Positions 2,764-13,973 are shown, counted from the stretch's first letter. The stretch is DNA of 64,000 nucleotides from Dehalococcoidia bacterium (GCA_965197645.1 OZ240219.1:480001-544000), one strand, 5' to 3'. Program-made: numbers and translations. The notes: generated from the letters alone by a model not told the origin.

Positions 2764-3948
2764 CTAATCGGCAGCGGTGAACATGGCAAAGGAGCTTGTG
2801 AACCCGTGGAGAAAGGTGGTGCCGCCCACGGGCCCGATCTCTCCGTTGCAAAAGAAACCGGTCAGCGCCACGTTGGAGACCTTCTCCTGGAACAGGTCTG
2901 AATCGTGGTTGGGCCGGCCGAAGAGGTGCTCGCCCCGGCCGAGGCACTGAAACAGGAGGGCCCCGGCAATCGGACTGGAGCCGTTCTCTGAAACGTACCG
3001 CTCCATCATCGCTTCCAGGTCGTCCGCCGCCGTTCGACCGTCTCGAACGTGAAACTGGACGACCTGACCCTCCCTCAACATCTCACCCACCACCAGCGCC
3101 CCCGTTTCCTGGTGCAGCCCCATCACGTTTCTGATCAGGAAGTCACCTCGCTGGAACTCCTCCTGCAGCGGGTCCATCACCACGCCGACGTGCAGCGCGG
3201 AGTTGATCAGCCGCCGGTCCTCCTCATTGGCTTCGGAAAAGATCGCCTGGAGGGCCTCCAGCGGCTTCTTGCCGTCCAGCTCGAAGAGGACGTTGCTTTC
3301 GCACCGGTCCACGACCATCGGCAGACCTATCGGGCGACATCCCTGGGCCACGATGGTCTCCACCTTGACGTTGCCGTGCAGGGAGATGCCCACCACGCCG
3401 GACCTGAACACCTCCTGCCCCATGAACAGTGCGTTGCCGCCGGGTCGCCGTCCACCACTGGCCAAACCGCCTATCTTGACGCTGCCGCTAAATGCGTAGT
3501 CCAGGCCCAGCAACAGATTGTCAGCGTGGATGGTGAAGGGGTCCGGCAGGATGACGAAGTGGGGTTTGTCGGAGGCGGTGACACCCACCAGGTCCTCCCA
3601 TGAGGCAGGCGGATCGTCCAGGGTCGGTAGGTCTTCGTCGGAGATGTGGAAAGGGGTCAACTGGACGTCGGGCAGAACACCCGCGGTCAGAGCGAAAGCG
3701 GGACTGTTCTCGACCTCTTTGCCGGCCCCTATTACCCCACCTCCCGAGCATCCGACTATTTCCCTCGCCCCGAGGTGCTTGCTGATTAGGCCCGGTACAT
3801 CGTCGTAGGCCTCGAAGTGCTGGTTGGACACAAAGGCCAGAGCCACGTCGACCGATTTCGTTCCCAGCTCGGACCTCACCTGCTTGGCGCACTCTTTGAC
3901 GGCCTTGTCCAACGATGAGCTTTCAGATATGGCTGATGCCCATTTCAT
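2764..3948 (-). CDS. FIST N/C domain protein
   Basis: GCSGGGVIG, GGLASGG, VAQGCRPIG, FLIRNVMG, FQCLGRG, GFFCNGEIGP motifs; start MKWASAIS. Confidence 0.9.
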   Translation of the reverse strand: MKWASAISESSSLDKAVKECAKQVRSELGTKSVDVALAFVSNQHFEAYDDVPGLISKHLGAREIVGCSGGGVIGAGKEVENSPAFALTAGVLPDVQLTPFHISDEDLPTLDDPPASWEDLVGVTASDKPHFVILPDPFTIHADNLLLGLDYAFSGSVKIGGLASGGRRPGGNALFMGQEVFRSGVVGISLHGNVKVETIVAQGCRPIGLPMVVDRCESNVLFELDGKKPLEALQAIFSEANEEDRRLINSALHVGVVMDPLQEEFQRGDFLIRNVMGLHQETGALVVGEMLREGQVVQFHVRDGRTAADDLEAMMERYVSENGSSPIAGALLFQCLGRGEHLFGRPNHDSDLFQEKVSNVALTGFFCNGEIGPVGGTTFLHGFTSSFAMFTAAD

Positions 3949-4039
3949 TTGTCCACCCCTTCCGGAGCCTTTCGGCCCAATAACGGTAGTGCCGGGGATC
4001 CATTTCTCGTCACTATTATACAGCCTGGTTGCCCCGTCT

Positions 4040-5221
4040 CTAACGCTTCTCTCCGACCAAAAGGTGTCCCGGACCGTCACTTCTCACGAGGCTCACCCCA
4101 CTCGAGTGTTTCTTGTGCGCAGTTCTGACCCCGTAGTCACTTTTGCCCTGTACCCACATGTAAGGGAATCGTTTTGAGAGACCGAACAAGGCCTCGTGAA
4201 CGGCACGATACGGAGATTCGAGGAACCGATGCCGTAGCTCGTCAGAGAACTTATCTTCCTTCTCGGCTCCGCGATTCACGTTGTCGCTACGGAGCAGAAT
4301 CTCAAAGGCGCTGGCAAGCGATTCGGCAAAGCGAGGTTCATTCCGGAATTCCGAAAGGTCGATGCTTGGGACGCTAACCCCCAACCGGTCGAGCTCTTCC
4401 AAGAAACTGTCGGCCGCGTCCTTGCCGAAGAAATCGGCGAACTCCCGACTCTTCTCTCGCTTCGCCTTTAGGTCGTTGAGGGAAGATATGCGCCGGCGCA
4501 CGTAGTCCTGATGTTGCTTCCACAGAGGGTTGTCGTCCCAGTCAATTTCGGCTATATCAAGCCAGCTCACGTGATTCGAACGCGGGAAGCTCTTGGCGAA
4601 CTTCTCGAATTCCTTGACTGAGTTTAGCGAGTCCGCCTCCTCACTTGCTCGTTCTCTATTGAATGGAGTGAGAAACGAAATCTCCACGGAGTCGGAGTGT
4701 TTGTCCTTGAGCCCCTTACGATACTTCTCCAGCTGGCCGGGATCGACCGAACCATCGCTGGTCTTGACTTCAATCCCCAGGATCCGGCGAGCCGGATGCT
4801 CTGTTCGTATCAAGATGTCTATCCGGCCAGCAATGGCATCCTCAGCGACTTCGGCCTCAGGAAAGACCGTTGCCTGCTCAGGGGTCTCCCAATCTTGCGG
4901 TGCAGCCAGCTCCCATACGGCATTGAACAACGAGCGGTCTCCCTTCAGGCTGTACTGCAGGGCCTCAGCCAGAAATCGGGAATGGTACGGTTCGATTCTG
5001 CGACTGACTCGTCCTATGGTCTCGAATATGTTCATGGAAGCTCCTCCCCCAGGCTCCGCGGAAGTCGAGACGTTAAGCAGAGCCTGGGTTACCAGCTCCC
5101 GCAGGAACTCGATCTGGGCTGCCGTAAAGGGCAGCAACCTGTTGGACGGGGCCAGGCCCAGAGCCTTGTCCATCGCCTCGTTTACCCCAGCCTCGACATC
5201 TTCGGCCGTGATCTCGTTCAT
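4040..5221 (-). CDS. PD-(D/E)XK nuclease family protein (alternative start at 5035)
   Basis: GRIDILIR...GIEVKT...QLEKY nuclease motif; N-terminal EPYHSRFLA segment typical of PDDEXK_4-like proteins. Confidence 0.75.
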   Translation of the reverse strand: MNEITAEDVEAGVNEAMDKALGLAPSNRLLPFTAAQIEFLRELVTQALLNVSTSAEPGGGASMNIFETIGRVSRRIEPYHSRFLAEALQYSLKGDRSLFNAVWELAAPQDWETPEQATVFPEAEVAEDAIAGRIDILIRTEHPARRILGIEVKTSDGSVDPGQLEKYRKGLKDKHSDSVEISFLTPFNRERASEEADSLNSVKEFEKFAKSFPRSNHVSWLDIAEIDWDDNPLWKQHQDYVRRRISSLNDLKAKREKSREFADFFGKDAADSFLEELDRLGVSVPSIDLSEFRNEPRFAESLASAFEILLRSDNVNRGAEKEDKFSDELRHRFLESPYRAVHEALFGLSKRFPYMWVQGKSDYGVRTAHKKHSSGVSLVRSDGPGHLLVGEKR

Positions 5222-7166: not shown

Positions 7167-7295
7167 ACCATCCCCCTGGCCCCCTTCCCGGCCAGGAAGG
7201 GGGGATAGAAACAGTATATGAGGGACACCCCTTCGGCGGGCTCAGGGCAGGCTCTCAGACTCCGGGCAAAGGGGCTTCGCCCCTCTGCACACCCC
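7167..7295 (-). repeat. REP/MITE-like hairpin repeat, family B copy
   Basis: reverse complement matches 32467-32575 (GGGGTGTGCAGAGGGGCGAAGCCCCTTTGCC..GGGTGTCCCTCA); carries an extra nested segment near 7228-7252. Confidence 0.75.
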
Positions 7296-7350
7296 TTGGT
7301 CTATCGACACGCTAATGGCGGTTAGGGAGGGGCACTCGATTCAAATCAGA

Positions 7351-8127
7351 CTAGGTTTCCAGCGGCAGGCCGCGGTCGGTCCAATCCTTGAAGGATCCGT
7401 CGTACAGGCTGACTTCGTAACCCAGCTCCTTCAGCACCATGTATCCGACGGCCGCCCGAGGACCAGTACGGCAGTAGGCGATGACCTGAGCGCCCGATGA
7501 CAGCCCGGCCCCGACGGCGACCCGGACCAATTCGGATTTGTCAGCATGGAAGCTGTTGTCCTTCCCCACCAGGTTGGACCACACCAAGTTGACGGCCCCC
7601 GGTATGTGCCCCCCCACTTCCTCGGGGCTCCGCGTCTCGCCTGCGTATTCTTCGGGGGTGCGGAAGTCCACCACTACCTTCGCCCCCGAGTCCTTCGCAG
7701 CTTGCCAGTCCGACCTCACCGCCTCGTTGGCTGACGGAGTGAAATTGGCTGACGTAGCGGAGACCGGTTTGTAGTACACGCCCCGGTCCTCCTTGACCCA
7801 CTGATCGTAGAAGACCTCCATGAGGTGAACGTCGGTCCGGCCGAGGTACTCCAGAATCCACGTGAGCATAGAGCTGTACTGGCCATCCAAGGAATCGTAC
7901 AGAACGGGAGTTACGTCATCTCCCAGGCCCGTAGCTCCTATCCAACCGGCCAGGTCGTCCACAGACCTGAGCCTCGTCTGAGCGTCGAAGGCTTTGTACA
8001 TTGGCAGATTTACAGCGCCCTTCAGGTGGCCCATCATGTATCTCATCGGCCGCCGAGGATCCAACAGCTTCACCCCCGGATCATCCAGATGCCGTTGCAC
8101 CCAGTCGGTGCTTACCCATGTAACCAA
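7351..8127 (-). CDS. tandem-domain rhodanese / sulfurtransferase
   Basis: GHLKGAV, GHIPGAV, active-site YCRTGPRA, LYDGSFKDW. Confidence 0.9.
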   Translation of the reverse strand: MVTWVSTDWVQRHLDDPGVKLLDPRRPMRYMMGHLKGAVNLPMYKAFDAQTRLRSVDDLAGWIGATGLGDDVTPVLYDSLDGQYSSMLTWILEYLGRTDVHLMEVFYDQWVKEDRGVYYKPVSATSANFTPSANEAVRSDWQAAKDSGAKVVVDFRTPEEYAGETRSPEEVGGHIPGAVNLVWSNLVGKDNSFHADKSELVRVAVGAGLSSGAQVIAYCRTGPRAAVGYMVLKELGYEVSLYDGSFKDWTDRGLPLET

Positions 8128-8173
8128 TTTCTCACTCCATGCTAGATTAGGTCTGACGATGCACCAGACGCCA

Positions 8174-8207
8174 AAGAATCCAGGGCTTACTGCAGCCCCG
8201 GATTCTT
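8174..8207 (-). terminator. intergenic hairpin (weak terminator or stability element) between OsmC and rhodanese genes
   Basis: AAGAATCCGGGGCT-loop-AGCCCTGGATTCTT on the minus strand with only a short T run. Confidence 0.4.
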
Positions 8208-8237
8208 AAGTGTTGCCGAGTAAAGAGGTTTGACCCG

Positions 8238-8762
8238 TTAGACCATCTCGAACTCGGGGATGATCGCCGTTTGACGGGAAACGGTCTGCGCTACGGGAGA
8301 GCCGTCCACCGCCGCCTGCCATATCTCCTTCAAGGTCTTCTCATCGGCGTCGGCGCTGACGTACACCTTGGCGTTTATCGAGCCGTAGCCCGGGTTGCCG
8401 TCGTCGCTCAGCCCCGCCCACTTCCAGATGTTGTCGAAGTGACCTTCCAGGGCTATCTCGAGATCGTTGATCTTGACGCCTCGCCTGGTGGCGTTGAGGA
8501 CGAAACCGACGGTCATGCAGCCGCCGACCGCCGACAGGACGTGCTCGTGAGCGCTGGCAGCGCTATCGTCGGCGTCCAAGCCCTCGGGCTCGTCCAGGTC
8601 GATGGTGTGGGTCCTGGTGTAGGCCTTGGCCTTGAACCCGGACTGCCATCTCACGCGGGAGCGCCAGGGCCCGCTGATCGCTTTCTTGTTATCCGGGTCC
8701 TCCAGCGAGGCGAGTATCTCCTCGATTTTATCTCGATTCAGGCCGTTCAACTCTTCAGCCAT
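8238..8762 (-). CDS. OsmC/Ohr family protein, single-Cys type
   Basis: DEPEGL...HEHVLSAVGGCMT; second Cys position reads DGSPV. Confidence 0.85.
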   Translation of the reverse strand: MAEELNGLNRDKIEEILASLEDPDNKKAISGPWRSRVRWQSGFKAKAYTRTHTIDLDEPEGLDADDSAASAHEHVLSAVGGCMTVGFVLNATRRGVKINDLEIALEGHFDNIWKWAGLSDDGNPGYGSINAKVYVSADADEKTLKEIWQAAVDGSPVAQTVSRQTAIIPEFEMV

Positions 8763-8785
8763 TACAACCTCCCTTAAGTGGAAAC

Positions 8786-9949
8786 TTAAGCGTATTCCTT
8801 CCTGAGGATTTCCGCTGCCTCCGACATTGATTTCAGCTTCTTGTAAGCGATGACCGGTGTGTTCACGGACCTTTCGGCAAAGGTCCCAAACCCGCAGTCC
8901 GGGTTGAGATATACCTGTTCGGGGTCGAAGTACTGGAGGGCTTCTTTGACACGCCCCACTATCGTCTCGGGCTCCTCTATCTCATCGGTCCTGGGATTGA
9001 CCACGCCGAGTCCGATCTCCTTCTCCCGTTGGTACTCCTTGAACACCTCCATCTCGCCGGCCCTGGGTGTGGCGTACTCCAGCACCAACTGGTCTATGTT
9101 CATCTCCATCAAGTAGGGAAGCATTGGCCCGTAGTTGCCCTGCAACAACACGTCTTCCTTCCGGCTCCAGTTGCCCCTGCACACGTGCACGCCGAACTTC
9201 ACGTCTTCAAACCCTTCGACGGTCCGGTTCATCAGCGACACGGCCTGCTCCAGCTCCTGGGTCGGGTCTCGCTGGGTGGCAAGGGCGGCGCACATGAAGG
9301 TCTCGGCGCTCTCATCTCCGTACACCACCTGGGAAAGAGTCGGCTCGTCCAGCTGGATGAAGTTGACCCCCTTGTCCTTGAGGGCGCTAATCTCGTCCCG
9401 CAGGATGTTGACGATGTCGTCGGCCAGGACGTTCTGGTCGGGATAGGCGGCATCGGAAAGGCCCTCGAAATAGCTTGATTTGGTGAGCAGGTACGGGCCG
9501 GGAAGGGGCACCTTGATCTGTCTATCGGTGTGCTCCGCCAGGTAGTCCACCTCGTCCAGCGAGAGGCCGTCCTTGGCCCCCAGCCTCTCGACGGCAATGG
9601 GGCTCTTGATAGCGAAGGCGGGCACGTCCAGCGCCCTCAACACCTCTTCGAAGCTGGCCCGGTCTTTCATGTAGTCCAGCAGTTCCGAGACTTTCTTCAA
9701 TGTCATGCCCGATAGCTTGTCCACGACGAAGGAGTAGAAGTTGTCTCTTCTCTGCTCCCCGTCGGTGATGATGTCAACCCCGGCGTCTTCCTGGTACTTG
9801 ATGGTAGCCAGCACCGCCTCGTCGGCGATCTCCCGGAACTCCTCATCGGAGATTTCACCCGCCTGCTTCTTTCGAAGGGCCTGGATAAGCCAGGGCGTCC
9901 TGGACCAGCTACCGACAACGGTGACGGGAAACAGCTTTGTCTCGGTCAT
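8786..9949 (-). CDS. cobalamin-independent methionine synthase II family (MetE C-terminal-only) protein
   Basis: VVGSW, TDGEQRR, IQLDEP, Zn ligands HVCRGN / LEY / PDCGF; single barrel of 387 aa. Confidence 0.9.
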   Translation of the reverse strand: MTETKLFPVTVVGSWSRTPWLIQALRKKQAGEISDEEFREIADEAVLATIKYQEDAGVDIITDGEQRRDNFYSFVVDKLSGMTLKKVSELLDYMKDRASFEEVLRALDVPAFAIKSPIAVERLGAKDGLSLDEVDYLAEHTDRQIKVPLPGPYLLTKSSYFEGLSDAAYPDQNVLADDIVNILRDEISALKDKGVNFIQLDEPTLSQVVYGDESAETFMCAALATQRDPTQELEQAVSLMNRTVEGFEDVKFGVHVCRGNWSRKEDVLLQGNYGPMLPYLMEMNIDQLVLEYATPRAGEMEVFKEYQREKEIGLGVVNPRTDEIEEPETIVGRVKEALQYFDPEQVYLNPDCGFGTFAERSVNTPVIAYKKLKSMSEAAEILRKEYA

Positions 9950-10279
9950 ACTCGGTTCTTTCCTCCCCTACCTGTGGGCAATGTTAGCCGACTTGTCAAA
10001 CGCGAGCGCCAACGCCTCTCCTCCGAGGGCAATCGCCGTAACATTATAACGCAAACCAGTAATTACGGATAATCCTTTTTTTTGAACCCTATAACAAGCT
10101 TCTATCCTGAGACTGCCTGAGGCCCCCGGTGAAGGGAATTCGTCCCTTTCCACGCTCCGTGGTTCTCCAGCCCATGAATGATAGGTGTGGGTTCGGGCTA
10201 CCAACCAGCTGCCGACAGACTCCTCTTCGTAGACAGAATGAAAGCAACTGAGCTTGTCTCATAAAGTACGGACGTCTTA

Positions 10280-10388
10280 GTCCCAACCACCCGCCCTCGG
10301 AAGGTTTTGTAGCTGGGGGAACATCCCCCAGGCCCCCGCCGGAGGGAAGTTTCCCTCTGGACTCTCTCAAAGCAGGGTTCTGAGACAG
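10280..10388 (-). repeat. REP/MITE-like hairpin repeat, family A copy
   Basis: reverse complement aligns with 2541-2709. Confidence 0.75.
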
Positions 10389-10492
10389 GCTCAACTCGAA
10401 AGAAGTAGGTAATCAGGGGAAGTATCGCTATCAGATGGAGGTATCCGTCCGGGCATGCCCAGTGTGGATAGGCCAGGGTTGTTGCAAAGGCG

Positions 10493-11443
10493 TTAGGTCT
10501 TGGGGACCCGTTCCAGTTTCTGGAAGGTCCTCATATGCTGGGGCGGGTCTCGGTGCTTGCCCACCATATTCCAGGACACCTCTGCCACGTAGACATCGCC
10601 ATGGGAGTCGGTAGCGATGCCGTGGGGCGCTACAAACTCTCCTTCGCCCTCGCCCAGCGTTGGCTCCCCGACACGAGTCACCAGGTCTCCGCCCAGAGTG
10701 TAGACGCTCACCCGGTGCCCCACGTCGGGAGCATCCACGAAGTAGGCCTCACCCATGAGCTCGGCTATGTAGAGGTTGCCGTCCGGGGCCAGCGAGATGC
10801 CGGCCGGCTTCCAGATATCGTGCCATATGTGCTGAAGCTTCCCGTCGGTGTCGAAGACCTGGATGCGATGGTTCTCTCGGTCGGCCACGTACACGTTGTC
10901 GTCCTTGTCAACCTCGATGTTGTGGGGAATGACGAACTGGCCCGGATCGATACCCGATGATCCCCACGACATGATGTGCTCTCCCTCCGGCGAGTACTTG
11001 TGCACCCGGGAGTTTCCGTAGCCGTCCGAAACGAACAGGTCTCCCGTTCTGGAGGATACGGCCAGATGGGTAGGCTGGTTGAACTCGTCGCCGCTCCACC
11101 TTGGCGCCGGGTTGTTGGCCGAACCCAAAGTGAGAAGCAGCCTGCCATCCGGGGTGAACTTTCGGACCGTGTGGTCTCCCATATCGGCGCAGTAGATCGA
11201 GTCATCGGGGCCGGTGCTGATGCCGTGCGGGAACCCGAAGACGCCTTCACCCCAGGAATCGACCACGTTGCCGTCCCTATCGAAAACGATGACGGGATGG
11301 TCCCCTCTGGTGAACACGTAGACCCTGTCTTTGGAGTCCACCGCCACCCCGGCGCACTCCAGGAAGGACCACCCTTCCGGCAGCTTCTCCCAACCTTCGA
11401 CAGCTTTGAAGGAGACCTGGTCTGCGCTCAGTAGTGTAGTCAT
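10493..11443 (-). CDS. NHL-repeat beta-propeller, peptidyl-alpha-hydroxyglycine alpha-amidating lyase-like
   Basis: FPHGI, FNQPTHLAV, SDGYGNSRVHKY, PHNI, VADRENHRIQVF repeats. Confidence 0.88.
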   Translation of the reverse strand: MTTLLSADQVSFKAVEGWEKLPEGWSFLECAGVAVDSKDRVYVFTRGDHPVIVFDRDGNVVDSWGEGVFGFPHGISTGPDDSIYCADMGDHTVRKFTPDGRLLLTLGSANNPAPRWSGDEFNQPTHLAVSSRTGDLFVSDGYGNSRVHKYSPEGEHIMSWGSSGIDPGQFVIPHNIEVDKDDNVYVADRENHRIQVFDTDGKLQHIWHDIWKPAGISLAPDGNLYIAELMGEAYFVDAPDVGHRVSVYTLGGDLVTRVGEPTLGEGEGEFVAPHGIATDSHGDVYVAEVSWNMVGKHRDPPQHMRTFQKLERVPKT

Positions 11444-11547
11444 GTCTCTCTCCCCTCGCCGATACTGCGGAACGGAACGAAATGGACTGCAGGCGCTTAC
11501 TATACTTGAGAACCGGGCGACGGCGCCACAATCTCCCCTCGAAATCG

Positions 11548-11627
11548 CTAAGGTCTACCTAAGGTCTAGCTATTGACACACTATCCGTCCCAATCTACAA
11601 TTGCCCTACATCTAAGAATATGCTTAG
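11548..11627 (+). promoter_or_regulatory. sigma70 promoter with upstream direct repeat and downstream palindrome
   Basis: CTAAGGTCTA twice (11548-57, 11559-68); TTGACA 11573-78, 17 bp, TACAAT 11596-601; CTAAG-N6-CTTAG 11612-27. Confidence 0.7.
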
Positions 11628-11656
11628 GTGCTTATCCAGCAGGAAGAGGTGGCCAT

Positions 11657-12748
11657 ATGACGATGTCTACAGAGTCCACTAAACCGACTCCCAAATACGG
11701 TGAGGACTACGAGCCTGGTCTGGACTGGATGGACAAGCGGGGCGAGTGGGGCATGAAGGCCCAGCCGAGCAAGCGGGGCCTTACCATGGAGGACATCCAG
11801 ATTGGGTCCTACGGCGAGCCGCCGGAAGAGAGTATCAATCGCTCCGGTCGTCCCAGAGGCTCCGTGGCTCGAGAGGGCGGATACCGAAGCGGCAACTACT
11901 CCATCACCTCCAAGCAGGACATCTGGCTGAAGAACGCGGCCGGCCTGTACGAAGAGGCGCTTCAGAGGCAGTGGAGCTCCGCCACCGATATCCCATGGGA
12001 GACCATCAAGCCCCTGCCCGACGACGTCGAAAGGGCGGCGAGCCAGTTCAACACCTTCCTCAGCGACATCGAGTTCGTGGCGGCGGACGTACCGGGCAAA
12101 TGGGTGGCCAACTCCAGCCCCGACTTCCTGGAGCCCCGCATGTACCTCATGACCCAGATGGTCGACGAAGCGAGGCATCTCGACGTCTTCCGCAAGCGGG
12201 CCCTGGCCAACGGCGGCGGTCTGATGATGCGGACCCAGGACACCATGGTTGGAGGCGTCGTCAGCATCGACCACGCCCGGGACTTCTCGGAGATGTCGGC
12301 ACGCCTGCACGTCATCGGAGAAGGACCCGTGCTGACGATCTTCCGCATCGGGGAGCTGATCGCCTACAACGAGGCGGAGAAGCGGATGTACCGCTTGGCC
12401 GCCCAGGACGAGTCCCGTCACGTGGCCTTCGGCGTGATGCACATGCGCTACGTGGGTGAGACCCAGCCGGAGCGGCGGGAAGAGATCCACTGCTACCTGG
12501 ACGAGGGGGAGGAATTCCTGTTCGTCGGCAGCTCCACCGCAGCCGGGGCGGGCGATACCAGCACCGAGTCGATGTCCATACTGCTGGGCGGCGGTAAGGA
12601 CAAGTATGACGAGGGCTTGAACCTCCTCATGGCGATCAACCGCCGTCAGATGAAAGAGTACATCCAGCGGGTCCACTCCGCCGGGTTCTCGGAGCGCTTC
12701 TACAACGGGCGCGCCCACCCTGAAATAGCAAAGCTAGCCCAGGAATAG
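11657..12748 (+). CDS. ferritin-like di-iron carboxylate protein, intact ligand set
   Basis: E (SDIEF), DEARH, E (IGEG), DESRH; GAGGTGG SD before ATG 11657. Confidence 0.85.
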   Translation: MTMSTESTKPTPKYGEDYEPGLDWMDKRGEWGMKAQPSKRGLTMEDIQIGSYGEPPEESINRSGRPRGSVAREGGYRSGNYSITSKQDIWLKNAAGLYEEALQRQWSSATDIPWETIKPLPDDVERAASQFNTFLSDIEFVAADVPGKWVANSSPDFLEPRMYLMTQMVDEARHLDVFRKRALANGGGLMMRTQDTMVGGVVSIDHARDFSEMSARLHVIGEGPVLTIFRIGELIAYNEAEKRMYRLAAQDESRHVAFGVMHMRYVGETQPERREEIHCYLDEGEEFLFVGSSTAAGAGDTSTESMSILLGGGKDKYDEGLNLLMAINRRQMKEYIQRVHSAGFSERFYNGRAHPEIAKLAQE

Positions 12749-12775
12749 GCCCGTCCGACACTTTCGGAAGTACTA

Positions 12776-12804
12776 CGCCGAGCCGGCTGTGAGCCGGCTC
12801 GGCG
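12776..12804 (+). other. perfect 13-bp intergenic hairpin
   Basis: CGCCGAGCCGGCT-GTG-AGCCGGCTCGGCG, no U tract. Confidence 0.7.
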
Positions 12805-12860
12805 CATACAATTAAAGAGCGCGTATCGCCTCTGTTCATCAGCCACATTGGAGATGCAGC

Positions 12861-13973
12861 ATGTCACCATCGACCCCCGATAAGTCCGGACCCAAGACAG
12901 GCACTGTAACCCGGCACCAGCGAGTGCTGAAAGAGCTTCGGGAACCAACCGAAGGGGAGCCGCTTCCGCCTCCTACCCTGGACTGGATGAACAAGAGCCT
13001 CCAGTGGGGCGTTCGGGTGAAGCCCGGCAAGAAGGGGCTCACCATGGGCTTGCTGAATGTCGGCATTTACGGAGAGATCCCTGACTTTTGGGAGGACAGG
13101 ACCCGGATGCTGCGCGGCTCCTACTCCACGGGCACATCTCCCCAGCTTCCCATCATGCTCCGCTACAAACACGAGCTATGGGCGGACAACGCCGCCGACC
13201 TGTATGAAGAGGCGATTCAACGGCGCTGGGTCCCCGCCACCGATGTTCCCTGGGCTACCCAGGAACCCCTGCCTGAAGACGTCGAGATAGCCATGTGCCA
13301 GCTCGCCACCGAGCTGTGCCAGCAGGCCAACGTGGAATCGGAGATAGTCGGTACCTGGCTCCAGCACATGTCCTACGGCTACCACGAAGTGAAGATATTC
13401 CTCGCTACAGAAGTGCTGGACGCTGCCCGGCACTTCGATGCATTTCGAAAGCGGGCCCTGTCCAACGGCGGCGGCCTGGGGCTGGAAAGCCGCGGCGAGC
13501 TCAACAGGGTCATCCTACAGAGCTTCGGGGACTGGTCCGAATGCAGCCTGTTTCTCCACGTAATGCGGGGGAGCTTCGCACTGACACTCTACCGGTTCGG
13601 CGAGGCCTTCGCCCACAACCCCGCCGAGAAAGAGATGTTCAGCCGCTGCCTGCAGGACAAGGGCCGTCACATGGCCTACGCCCTCGCCCATCTGCGCTAC
13701 GCCCTCAGCAAGAAACCGGACATGAACAGGGTCTTCAATAACATCCTGGGCATCGCCGAGTCCCAGATGGCCAGGGACCTGGAAGACCCCGTCCTCGTCG
13801 AGACGTTGGCCGTAATCATGGGCGGCGGCGTGGAGGGAGTCCGCACCGGCATGAGGAAGGCTACCCACGTGCTGGGCGATTTCGTCCGGCAGTACCTGAG
13901 CAACACCAAGTATATAGGCGTCGACCGGTCCCAGAATCTCCACTCGGACCTGGCGGCCTACCTGGAGTCTTAG
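12861..13973 (+). CDS. ferritin-like paralogue with degenerate metal site
   Basis: colinear with 11657 protein (LDWM..W, LYEEA.QR.W..ATD.PW, FRKRAL.NGGGL) but DAARH and DKGRH in place of ExxH. Confidence 0.85.
   Translation: MSPSTPDKSGPKTGTVTRHQRVLKELREPTEGEPLPPPTLDWMNKSLQWGVRVKPGKKGLTMGLLNVGIYGEIPDFWEDRTRMLRGSYSTGTSPQLPIMLRYKHELWADNAADLYEEAIQRRWVPATDVPWATQEPLPEDVEIAMCQLATELCQQANVESEIVGTWLQHMSYGYHEVKIFLATEVLDAARHFDAFRKRALSNGGGLGLESRGELNRVILQSFGDWSECSLFLHVMRGSFALTLYRFGEAFAHNPAEKEMFSRCLQDKGRHMAYALAHLRYALSKKPDMNRVFNNILGIAESQMARDLEDPVLVETLAVIMGGGVEGVRTGMRKATHVLGDFVRQYLSNTKYIGVDRSQNLHSDLAAYLES

Follow-up and report, generated by a model that had tools for sequence, protein, structure and literature searches.

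The known persulfide relays of TusA, DsrE, and rhodanese proteins deliver sulfur for tRNA thiolation, for molybdenum cofactor synthesis, or to Dsr/sHdr sulfur oxidation. Core methionine synthases, as Price et al. (2021, PMC7857596) describe them, are identified from seven residues, four that bind zinc and three that bind homocysteine. The stretch of DNA analyzed here comprises 64,000 nt of Dehalococcoidia bacterium (GCA_965197645.1 OZ240219.1:480001-544000), called the window below, with coordinates counted from its first letter, and it belongs to a 3.21-Mb genome, a single contig that is 94% complete; close relatives of its proteins are labeled Dehalococcoidia or Chloroflexi in their source records. 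In this window, genes for a single-barrel MetE-like zinc enzyme, a one-cysteine (1-Cys) OsmC-like protein, and a rhodanese follow one another on the minus strand (7351-9949). This triad is very probably a unit independent of the pair of ferritin-like genes (FerA and FerB) and the NHL-repeat gene beside it. The reading that we favor for it, with confidence evenly balanced, is a cysteine relay in which a homocysteine-type substrate would receive or give up sulfur, or possibly selenium.

The best solved relative of the MetE-like protein is the YxjG/YxjH-type protein 1YPX (E 5.9e-27), which is of similar length and shares the HxCRGN, LEY, and PxCGF motifs but has no cysteine at the position of Cys220, an additional cysteine of the MetE-like protein described below. 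To our knowledge, no sulfur-carrier partners are known for the YxjG/YxjH-type family, the function of which is unsettled. The next relative is the MesD structure 3RPD (E 5.1e-23). Like MesD/MesX (PMC7857596), the MetE-like protein consists of one MetE-type barrel and has no folate domain; its zinc ligands are the same, as are Ser, Glu, and Asp at the homocysteine site, and it too appears to rely on a dedicated accessory protein instead of folate or B12. However, it scores 85 bits against 3RPD, far under the at least 390-560 bits to ACIAD3523 that the same source uses for MesD assignment, which argues against membership. The partners differ as well, being OsmC plus rhodanese, or TusA, whereas that of MesD is DUF1852, and the lid-loop Cys220 does not occur in the MesD alignment. 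PF08908 (MesX, DUF1852) had no match in the host genome, in a search whose control was also matchless in all 14 reference genomes. With the TusA/DsrE/rhodanese relays the triad has in common a chain of single-cysteine proteins ending at an enzyme, an intact CRxGxR loop, and the fusion of TusA to sister MetE-like proteins. It differs from them in that the chain would end at a zinc enzyme of the MetE fold and include a relay member of the OsmC fold, neither of which was found in a full-text literature search; nor did that search return a paper describing a MetE-like/OsmC/rhodanese gene set.

In several phyla the three genes are conserved together, with unchanged order and all on the same strand. 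The comparison covers the best 80 of 177 MetE-like relatives (69-77% identity), each with up to 9 kb of either flank, searched with every protein of the window. OsmC was found in 76 of the 80 loci, in 74 of them on the same strand and no more than 1.5 kb downstream of the MetE-like gene (median gap, 82 nt; in the window, OsmC starts 23 nt past the MetE-like stop). The rhodanese was found in 73 loci and lies directly after OsmC in 71 of the 73 that hold both (median gap, 6 nt). Among the loci without a rhodanese, the sequence ends 460-1479 nt past the MetE-like gene in L012, L026, and L078, and L029 leaves 1.2 kb of room. When 5,252 open reading frames (ORFs) from the 80 loci and the window were clustered all against all, the MetE family was present in 81 of 81, OsmC in 76, and the rhodanese in 74, together with antisense shadow ORFs; the next real cluster, luciferase-like, reached 18 of 81. 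Most of the 80 loci are from Dehalococcoidia, Chloroflexota, or SAR202 metagenome-assembled genomes (MAGs), and other record titles name Binatia/Binataceae (L019, L042, and L083), Proteobacteria (L028 and L029), Deltaproteobacteria (L010), Acidimicrobiaceae (L078), and Enterobacteriaceae (L009). The flanks depend on lineage: L009 and L019 have GcvH/PyrF/ProS and an AhpD-like CMD gene, L028 and L083 have an MFS transporter, and L042 has an ABC transporter. No family besides those of the triad is universal in the flanks of the loci compared across phyla.

HMMER alignment of the MetE-like protein to 1YPX, 3RPD, and 1XPG assigns its zinc ligands as H255 (9185-9187), C257 (9179-9181), E291 (9077-9079), and C352 (8894-8896), and aligns S14, E65, and D201 with the homocysteine-site residues of MetE and MesD. 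All seven are invariant or nearly so in the family, with H255, C257, and C352 present in 84 of 84 sequences. The extra Cys220, in TFMCAAL (9290-9292), is present in 79 of 79 orthologues and belongs to an inserted segment, about 8 residues long, that is missing from generic single-barrel MetE-like proteins. In a tree calculated without the insertion columns, from which six frameshifted, intein-bearing, partial, or degenerate rows were left out, all 8 rows with the Cys loop fall inside a 10-row group (Shimodaira-Hasegawa-like approximate likelihood ratio test, SH-aLRT, 99), the remaining two rows of which have the loop without the cysteine. On these alignments, the Cys220 loop marks one clade. 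An AlphaFold2 model of the protein is of high overall quality (predicted local distance difference test, pLDDT, 89.4; predicted template modeling score, pTM, 0.91), and its sole low-confidence loop, at residues ~211-228 (pLDDT 57-65), comes straight after the strand ending at D201. Because of this position in the TIM barrel, the Cys220 loop is predicted to be at the catalytic face, next to the strand with H255 and C257, and it is probably mobile. The protein is highly conserved, with 74-80% identity over more than 100 clusters of 387 amino acids (aa). The protein scores under every NCBIfam equivalog cut-off, the best being NF003317 (220.6 bits versus 406), and for MetE itself (TIGR01371) this single barrel reaches 98.4 bits against a cut-off of 929.95.

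The second protein of the triad has the OsmC fold (PF02566, 51.4 bits versus a cut-off of 27.5) and the first, peroxidatic-position cysteine of the OsmC/Ohr hydroperoxide reductases, a family known as such (10.64898/2026.10.01.755906). It does not have the two catalytic cysteines of OsmC/Ohr peroxiredoxins: Cys82 (8517-8519) is its sole cysteine and is kept in 74 of 74 orthologues, whereas the usual second position is occupied by Ser155 (8298-8300, in GSPV), with serine there in all orthologues, so the usual two-cysteine cycle cannot run. Its nearest solved relative, 2OPL, is an uncharacterized protein without an assigned function that has the matching single cysteine and the same SPV. Mean column identity among 32 sequences of the OsmC-like protein is 76%, and no fused form of at least 306 aa was found at E ≤ 1e-10, which is weak evidence as fusions of ~260-300 aa fall outside that range. 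The rhodanese is a tandem-domain protein with a CRxGx[R/T] loop (C219-R-T-G-P-R at 7456-7473) that scores under all NCBIfam equivalog cut-offs, and every one of 73 orthologues retains its Cys219. By its CRxGxR loop, we take it to be of the thiosulfate type. A preliminary description of the locus, made from the sequence alone, had reported the genes of rhodanese, OsmC, MetE-like protein, and NHL protein on the minus strand with divergent ferritin-like paralogues, and the ORF list agrees with the Pfam and NCBIfam scans on that order. Its reading of the motifs, namely HVC, E, and PDC zinc ligands plus an extra cysteine in TFMCAAL, an OsmC retaining only its first cysteine, and an intact CRTG loop, agrees with our verification codon by codon.

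A further connection to sulfur carriers comes from sister members of the Cys-loop clade of MetE-like proteins. Among representatives at 50% identity, 5,134 matched at E ≤ 0.001, and of the 12 longer or close ones that were domain-scanned, six (P0244, P0255, P0283, P0254, P0338, and P0384) have an N-terminal TusA domain (PF01206). The fused TusA parts retain the cysteine in LDCG(S/N)GLLL; the FMC motif is present in the MetE-like part of P0244, P0254, and P0255, missing in P0283, and gapped in P0338. In P0257, a TusA-like N terminus, an OsmC-like segment that includes the cysteine (E 5e-14), and a MetE-like part with TFMCAALA (E 8e-68) share a single frame, but stretches of P0257 look frameshifted, so it may be a read-through of adjacent genes instead of a true fusion. 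We also surveyed 201 genomes of the class, 32 of which have a gene of the Cys-loop type, 22 as the triad and 10 as the fused type only. The TusA-fused form (38-42% identity; frames of 508-553 aa) is the only form in one family (f6), in 10 of 10 genomes, and coexists with the triad form in one genus (g2). The neighbors of the fused genes vary, and tblastn found no OsmC near them; the sister genes appear to have neither OsmC nor rhodanese as neighbors. Five genomes that have only the fused form and are 92-96% complete contain no detectable 1-Cys OsmC, which suggests that the fused carrier takes over in cis what the separate partners would do in trans.

How such a relay might operate can be outlined. 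Cys219 in the thiosulfate-type loop of the rhodanese would pick up sulfane sulfur, or possibly selenium, and the atom would be handed, directly or via Cys82 of OsmC, to Cys220, which the MetE-like protein has on its probably mobile lid. At the zinc site it would then be joined to, or removed from, a homocysteine-type amino acid. In the version that we prefer, the persulfide of Cys220 would attack an activated four-carbon amino acid to give an enzyme-bound homocysteine disulfide, which a second relay cysteine would resolve, analogous to other persulfide-dependent thiolations. That a cysteine relay of sulfur or selenium takes part in catalysis is probable, whereas this net reaction, in which a lid persulfide acts on an activated C4 amino acid and the disulfide is then resolved, is tentative at best. 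We favor the relay over a plain methionine synthase because TusA is fused to sister enzymes, because each of the three proteins has one invariant cysteine, and because the Cys loop is confined to one clade.

Several observations weigh against the relay. Loci L053, L076, and L077 have neither partner despite 9 kb of downstream sequence and are real exceptions, and more distant orthologues (53-59% identity; L173, L174, L175, and L177) keep an adjacent OsmC but show no adjacent rhodanese with the query used. The partner set of the triad is flexible. None of the 32 RNA-library contig pieces listed, out of a set with 349 further pieces, spans the MetE-OsmC or the OsmC-rhodanese junction. The host has a cystathionine-gamma-synthase-like pyridoxal phosphate (PLP) enzyme and hence no obvious need for another way to homocysteine. 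Nor does a gap in sulfur assimilation accompany the module: an NIR_SIR-type sulfite/nitrite reductase was not found in the 94%-complete host genome, but 17 of the 22 triad carriers have one, as do all 9 of the other genomes sampled from the host family. The idea that the module substitutes for sulfite reduction was dropped, as the lack in the host is not common to other carriers. Phylogenetic profiling, a check put forward in the preliminary description, was run over the 201 class genomes for MetH and MetE and counted the triad carriers, but it does not separate the readings: MetH occurs in 2 of 22 triad carriers and in 10 of 10 fused-only carriers, two-barrel MetE occurs in 5 of 22 triad carriers, and neither is found in 15 of 22 triad carriers and ~110 of 169 non-carriers. 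Finally, by alignment the MetE-like protein keeps all of the zinc and homocysteine residues, exactly the pattern of an ordinary core methionine synthase.

This last point leads to the alternative that survives best, although we consider it unlikely, which is that the MetE-like protein is a conditional core methionine synthase. It would use an unknown non-folate methyl donor in the manner of MesA-D, with OsmC and the rhodanese protecting or repairing the zinc thiolate and Cys220. The retained residues are those by which Price et al. (PMC7857596) recognize such enzymes, the OsmC family is one of hydroperoxide reductases (10.64898/2026.10.01.755906), and the high identity across the many 387-aa clusters suits a core enzyme. 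The host genome contains no full-length MetH and no two-barrel MetE, and the 15 triad carriers with neither enzyme are in keeping with the same idea. However, TusA is a dedicated sulfur carrier and not a general protectant, and its fusion to sister enzymes is hard to square with protection. The OsmC of the triad is also without the second catalytic cysteine. The gene is patchy, occurring in 32 of 201 class genomes; 7 of the 22 triad carriers have MetH or MetE beside it, and MetH accompanies every fused-only form. Methionine could also come from other sources in the host, which has a further MetE-like gene (32% identity) and eight stand-alone genes for a homocysteine S-methyltransferase domain (~290 aa, three in tandem; none over an NCBIfam equivalog cut-off). 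No S-adenosylmethionine (SAM) or B12 riboswitch was seen either: an Rfam search of the window region at E up to 1 found no riboswitch, the only match being a subthreshold small RNA (sRNA)-like one downstream of the rhodanese, and nine orthologous loci gave no Rfam match at the gathering score.

A second alternative, which we regard as improbable, makes selenium the cargo. Here, Cys-S-Se groups would form on the rhodanese, OsmC, and the lid cysteine, and the MetE-like protein would make or dismantle selenohomocysteine or selenomethionine, perhaps feeding or buffering the selenophosphate pathway. The host has a SelD gene (G000:C1:941844-942767) with one in-frame TGA, so the organism most likely makes selenoproteins, SelD among them. 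In the class sample all 32 carriers have SelD, versus 120 of 169 non-carriers. A second phylum gives 4 of 4 carriers with SelD, and of four further carrier genomes three have it and one (G205, a 1.5-Mb MAG) shows none; yet base rates are high (152 of 201 class genomes; 229 of 251 in the second phylum) and related genomes are not independent, so the enrichment is weak. The only NCBIfam match of the OsmC-like protein is NF041052, "OsmC-related (seleno)protein," at 44.6 bits, under the 95-bit cut-off. Protein P0281 ends in "...RTFM," directly before the position of Cys220, and this possible selenocysteine (Sec), which is unconfirmed, is the sole hint of Sec seen here; no in-frame TGA or stop was found in the MetE-like genes matched in the 201 class genomes, 251 genomes of the second phylum, and 5 further genomes. 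The triad and selD are also far apart in the host (0.49 Mb versus 0.94 Mb), and the loop of the rhodanese is of the ordinary thiosulfate type.

Should the cysteine relay be correct, it would supply a new end point for persulfide or selenium trafficking and a new chemistry for the MetE fold, and the automatic label of "methionine synthase" on thousands of database entries would be corrected. The stand-alone OsmC plus rhodanese form and the TusA-fused form are read here as two architectures of one system. A bolder extension, which we hold to be doubtful, is that the Cys-loop clade constitutes a new class of relay-dependent zinc enzyme in which a persulfidated lid cysteine (Sec in some lineages) would be the catalytic nucleophile, loaded in trans by the rhodanese and OsmC or in cis by a fused TusA. 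Such a class would form or break the C-S (or C-Se) bond in homocysteine or methionine independently of PLP and cobalamin, and would include the first OsmC-fold protein to act as a relay member instead of a peroxidase. Sulfur amino acid metabolism is deemed well mapped, yet this enzyme is 70-80% identical between phyla, has the active site of a methionine synthase, and has fixed cysteine-carrier partners. The triad with three single Cys-to-Ser variants makes a simple system for the bench.

The preliminary description had joined all six genes into one system, in which a di-iron oxygenase would activate a substrate that the MetE-like protein, OsmC, and the rhodanese then process, with the NHL protein as an accessory; adjacency and divergent orientation in this one window, and RNA-library contigs over all six genes, are compatible with that proposal, but it is very improbable, as FerA and FerB are absent from all 80 triad loci, the NHL gene is present in two of them, none of 55 metagenome loci retrieved with FerA contains a MetE-like, OsmC, or NHL gene, no MetE, OsmC, or rhodanese gene neighbors any of the genome's five other ferritin-like copies, FerB is ligand-degenerate, and the ferritin pair has conserved partners of its own elsewhere. 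An epoxyalkane:coenzyme M-type pathway of a di-iron monooxygenase and a MetE-like enzyme was rejected on the same counts (0 of 80 and 0 of 55). What the preliminary description had stated about co-occurrence holds for OsmC and fails for the ferritin-like proteins, and the neighborhood comparison that it suggested likewise bears out the triad and not the di-iron and NHL parts. Of its sulfur relay through OsmC and the rhodanese, the link to an oxygenase is lost, whereas the conserved unit stands and a cysteine or persulfide relay is plausible from synteny, invariant cysteines, and TusA fusions.

FerA and FerB are a cassette of their own and an unrelated neighbor of the triad. An MFS gene, like the three absentees above, occurs in none of the 55 FerA loci, and the sole rhodanese match among them has 20% identity and lies ~5 kb away. 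FerB follows FerA in 35 of the 55, and these are 35 of the 35 with room to show it; 17 loci with FerA only stop no more than 687 nt past FerA, so FerB is present wherever it would be visible. The two proteins share 33% identity. FerA has the full E/ExxH/E/ExxH ligand set (DEARH and QDESRH), whereas FerB has lost both ExxH glutamates (DAARH and QDKGRH), as has the B-type paralogue of a second pair; the cassette therefore combines one ligand-complete and one degenerate subunit, and the earlier label of a di-iron pair does not hold. Neither protein matches a Pfam family. The ligand pattern of FerA and weak matches to R2lox (E 0.18) and the VlmB homologue 6D9F (E 0.003), the best solved relatives of the family profile, recall the R2-like ligand-binding oxidases. 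FerA and FerB differ from those enzymes in scoring far under the family cut-off of 194 (35.3 and 17 bits, respectively), in a conserved N-terminal extension of ~100 aa, and in the obligate tandem with a ligand-degenerate paralogue. The host genome contains six paralogues of the FerA/FerB family, including a second A+B pair at 2.586-2.588 Mb, and their neighbors are amidohydrolase-like and luciferase-like genes. Clustering of the ORFs of 58 ferritin stretches (the 55 FerA loci and three from the host genome) recovered a ~146-aa protein without a Pfam match in 31, mostly in two copies, and a ~93-aa four-cysteine protein that matches Zn_ribbon_8 in 22; neither lies beside the pair in the window or any host copy inspected. 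A strong promoter-like TTGACA-17-TACAAT at 11573-11601 overlaps an upstream TTG, so the start of FerA is most likely the ATG at 11657. The NHL gene is a lineage-specific neighbor outside the triad; in the two triad loci that have it (L064 and L067), it is downstream and on the opposite strand. The positions of these features, determined from the ORF list and the Pfam and NCBIfam scans, are collected in Table 1.

Table 1. Genes of the triad, their neighbors in the window, and related genes elsewhere in the host genome (positions are those of the window unless a G000 contig is named)
Feature	Position	Strand	Match
Two-domain rhodanese, 258 aa, third gene of the triad	7351-8127	minus	PF00581, two stretches, E 4.5e-30
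1-Cys OsmC-like protein, 174 aa, second gene of the triad	8238-8762	minus	PF02566, E 1.6e-13
Single-barrel MetE-like zinc enzyme, 387 aa, first gene of the triad	8786-9949	minus	PF01717, E 2.4e-33
5' leader and probable promoter region of the triad	9950-10060	minus	
NHL-repeat beta-propeller gene, outside the triad	10493-11443	minus	PF01436, E 5.6e-30
FerA, ferritin-like, separate unit	11657-12748	plus, divergent	weak, NCBIfam R2-like ligand-binding oxidase, E 7e-9
FerB, degenerate FerA paralogue, separate unit	12861-13973	plus	weak, NCBIfam R2-like ligand-binding oxidase, E 3e-3
Ferritin-like paralogues outside the window	G000:C1:2586318-2588510, 2941383-2942501, 2946014-2947168		
Stand-alone homocysteine S-methyltransferase-domain genes	G000:C1:2453775-2456756 and five other places		

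Upstream of the triad, a TATAAT-like hexamer can be read, at which a consensus promoter scan made no call, and visual comparison of the 5' leaders of 78 loci found clade-level promoter-like similarity only, with no shared element. Four metatranscriptome runs from one study ("sponge metagenome") contain 29-43% of the sampled words of the triad. The RNA-library contigs, from libraries that may contain DNA, match with 0-8 mismatches and cover parts of all six genes, including all three of the triad; they extend to 10027, 78 nt upstream of the MetE-like start codon, and one contig (12406-12978) bridges FerA and FerB. Just past the rhodanese stop, a GC-rich hairpin at 7226-7302 (minus) may be a terminator lacking a T tract, although a terminator scan called nothing there; it gives the subthreshold Rfam match mentioned above, to the Clostridiales-2 sRNA (24.8 bits versus 58.6, E 0.019), and the RNA-library contigs read G>C at 7264.

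In the two non-Dehalococcoidia loci L009 (11589-12092) and L019 (8257-8586), a gene of the AhpD-like CMD family is convergent just past the rhodanese, and a GcvH lipoyl-protein gene lies ~3 kb upstream; both families are known redox partners of OsmC/Ohr-type proteins (10.64898/2026.10.01.755906). In five closely related genomes (L011 and L013-L016), the place that the NHL gene occupies in the window, ~1.1 kb upstream of the triad, is taken by a divergent, generic MetE-like paralogue that has 29-30% identity and lacks the Cys loop. A 736-aa MetE-like relative, P0268, has a weak Hint-domain match in mid-protein (E 4.9e-4) that may be an intein within the barrel. Elsewhere in the window, an ORF of 393 aa at 4040-5221 (minus), without a Pfam match, overlaps the start of the upstream ORF at 2764-4080 by ~40 nt.

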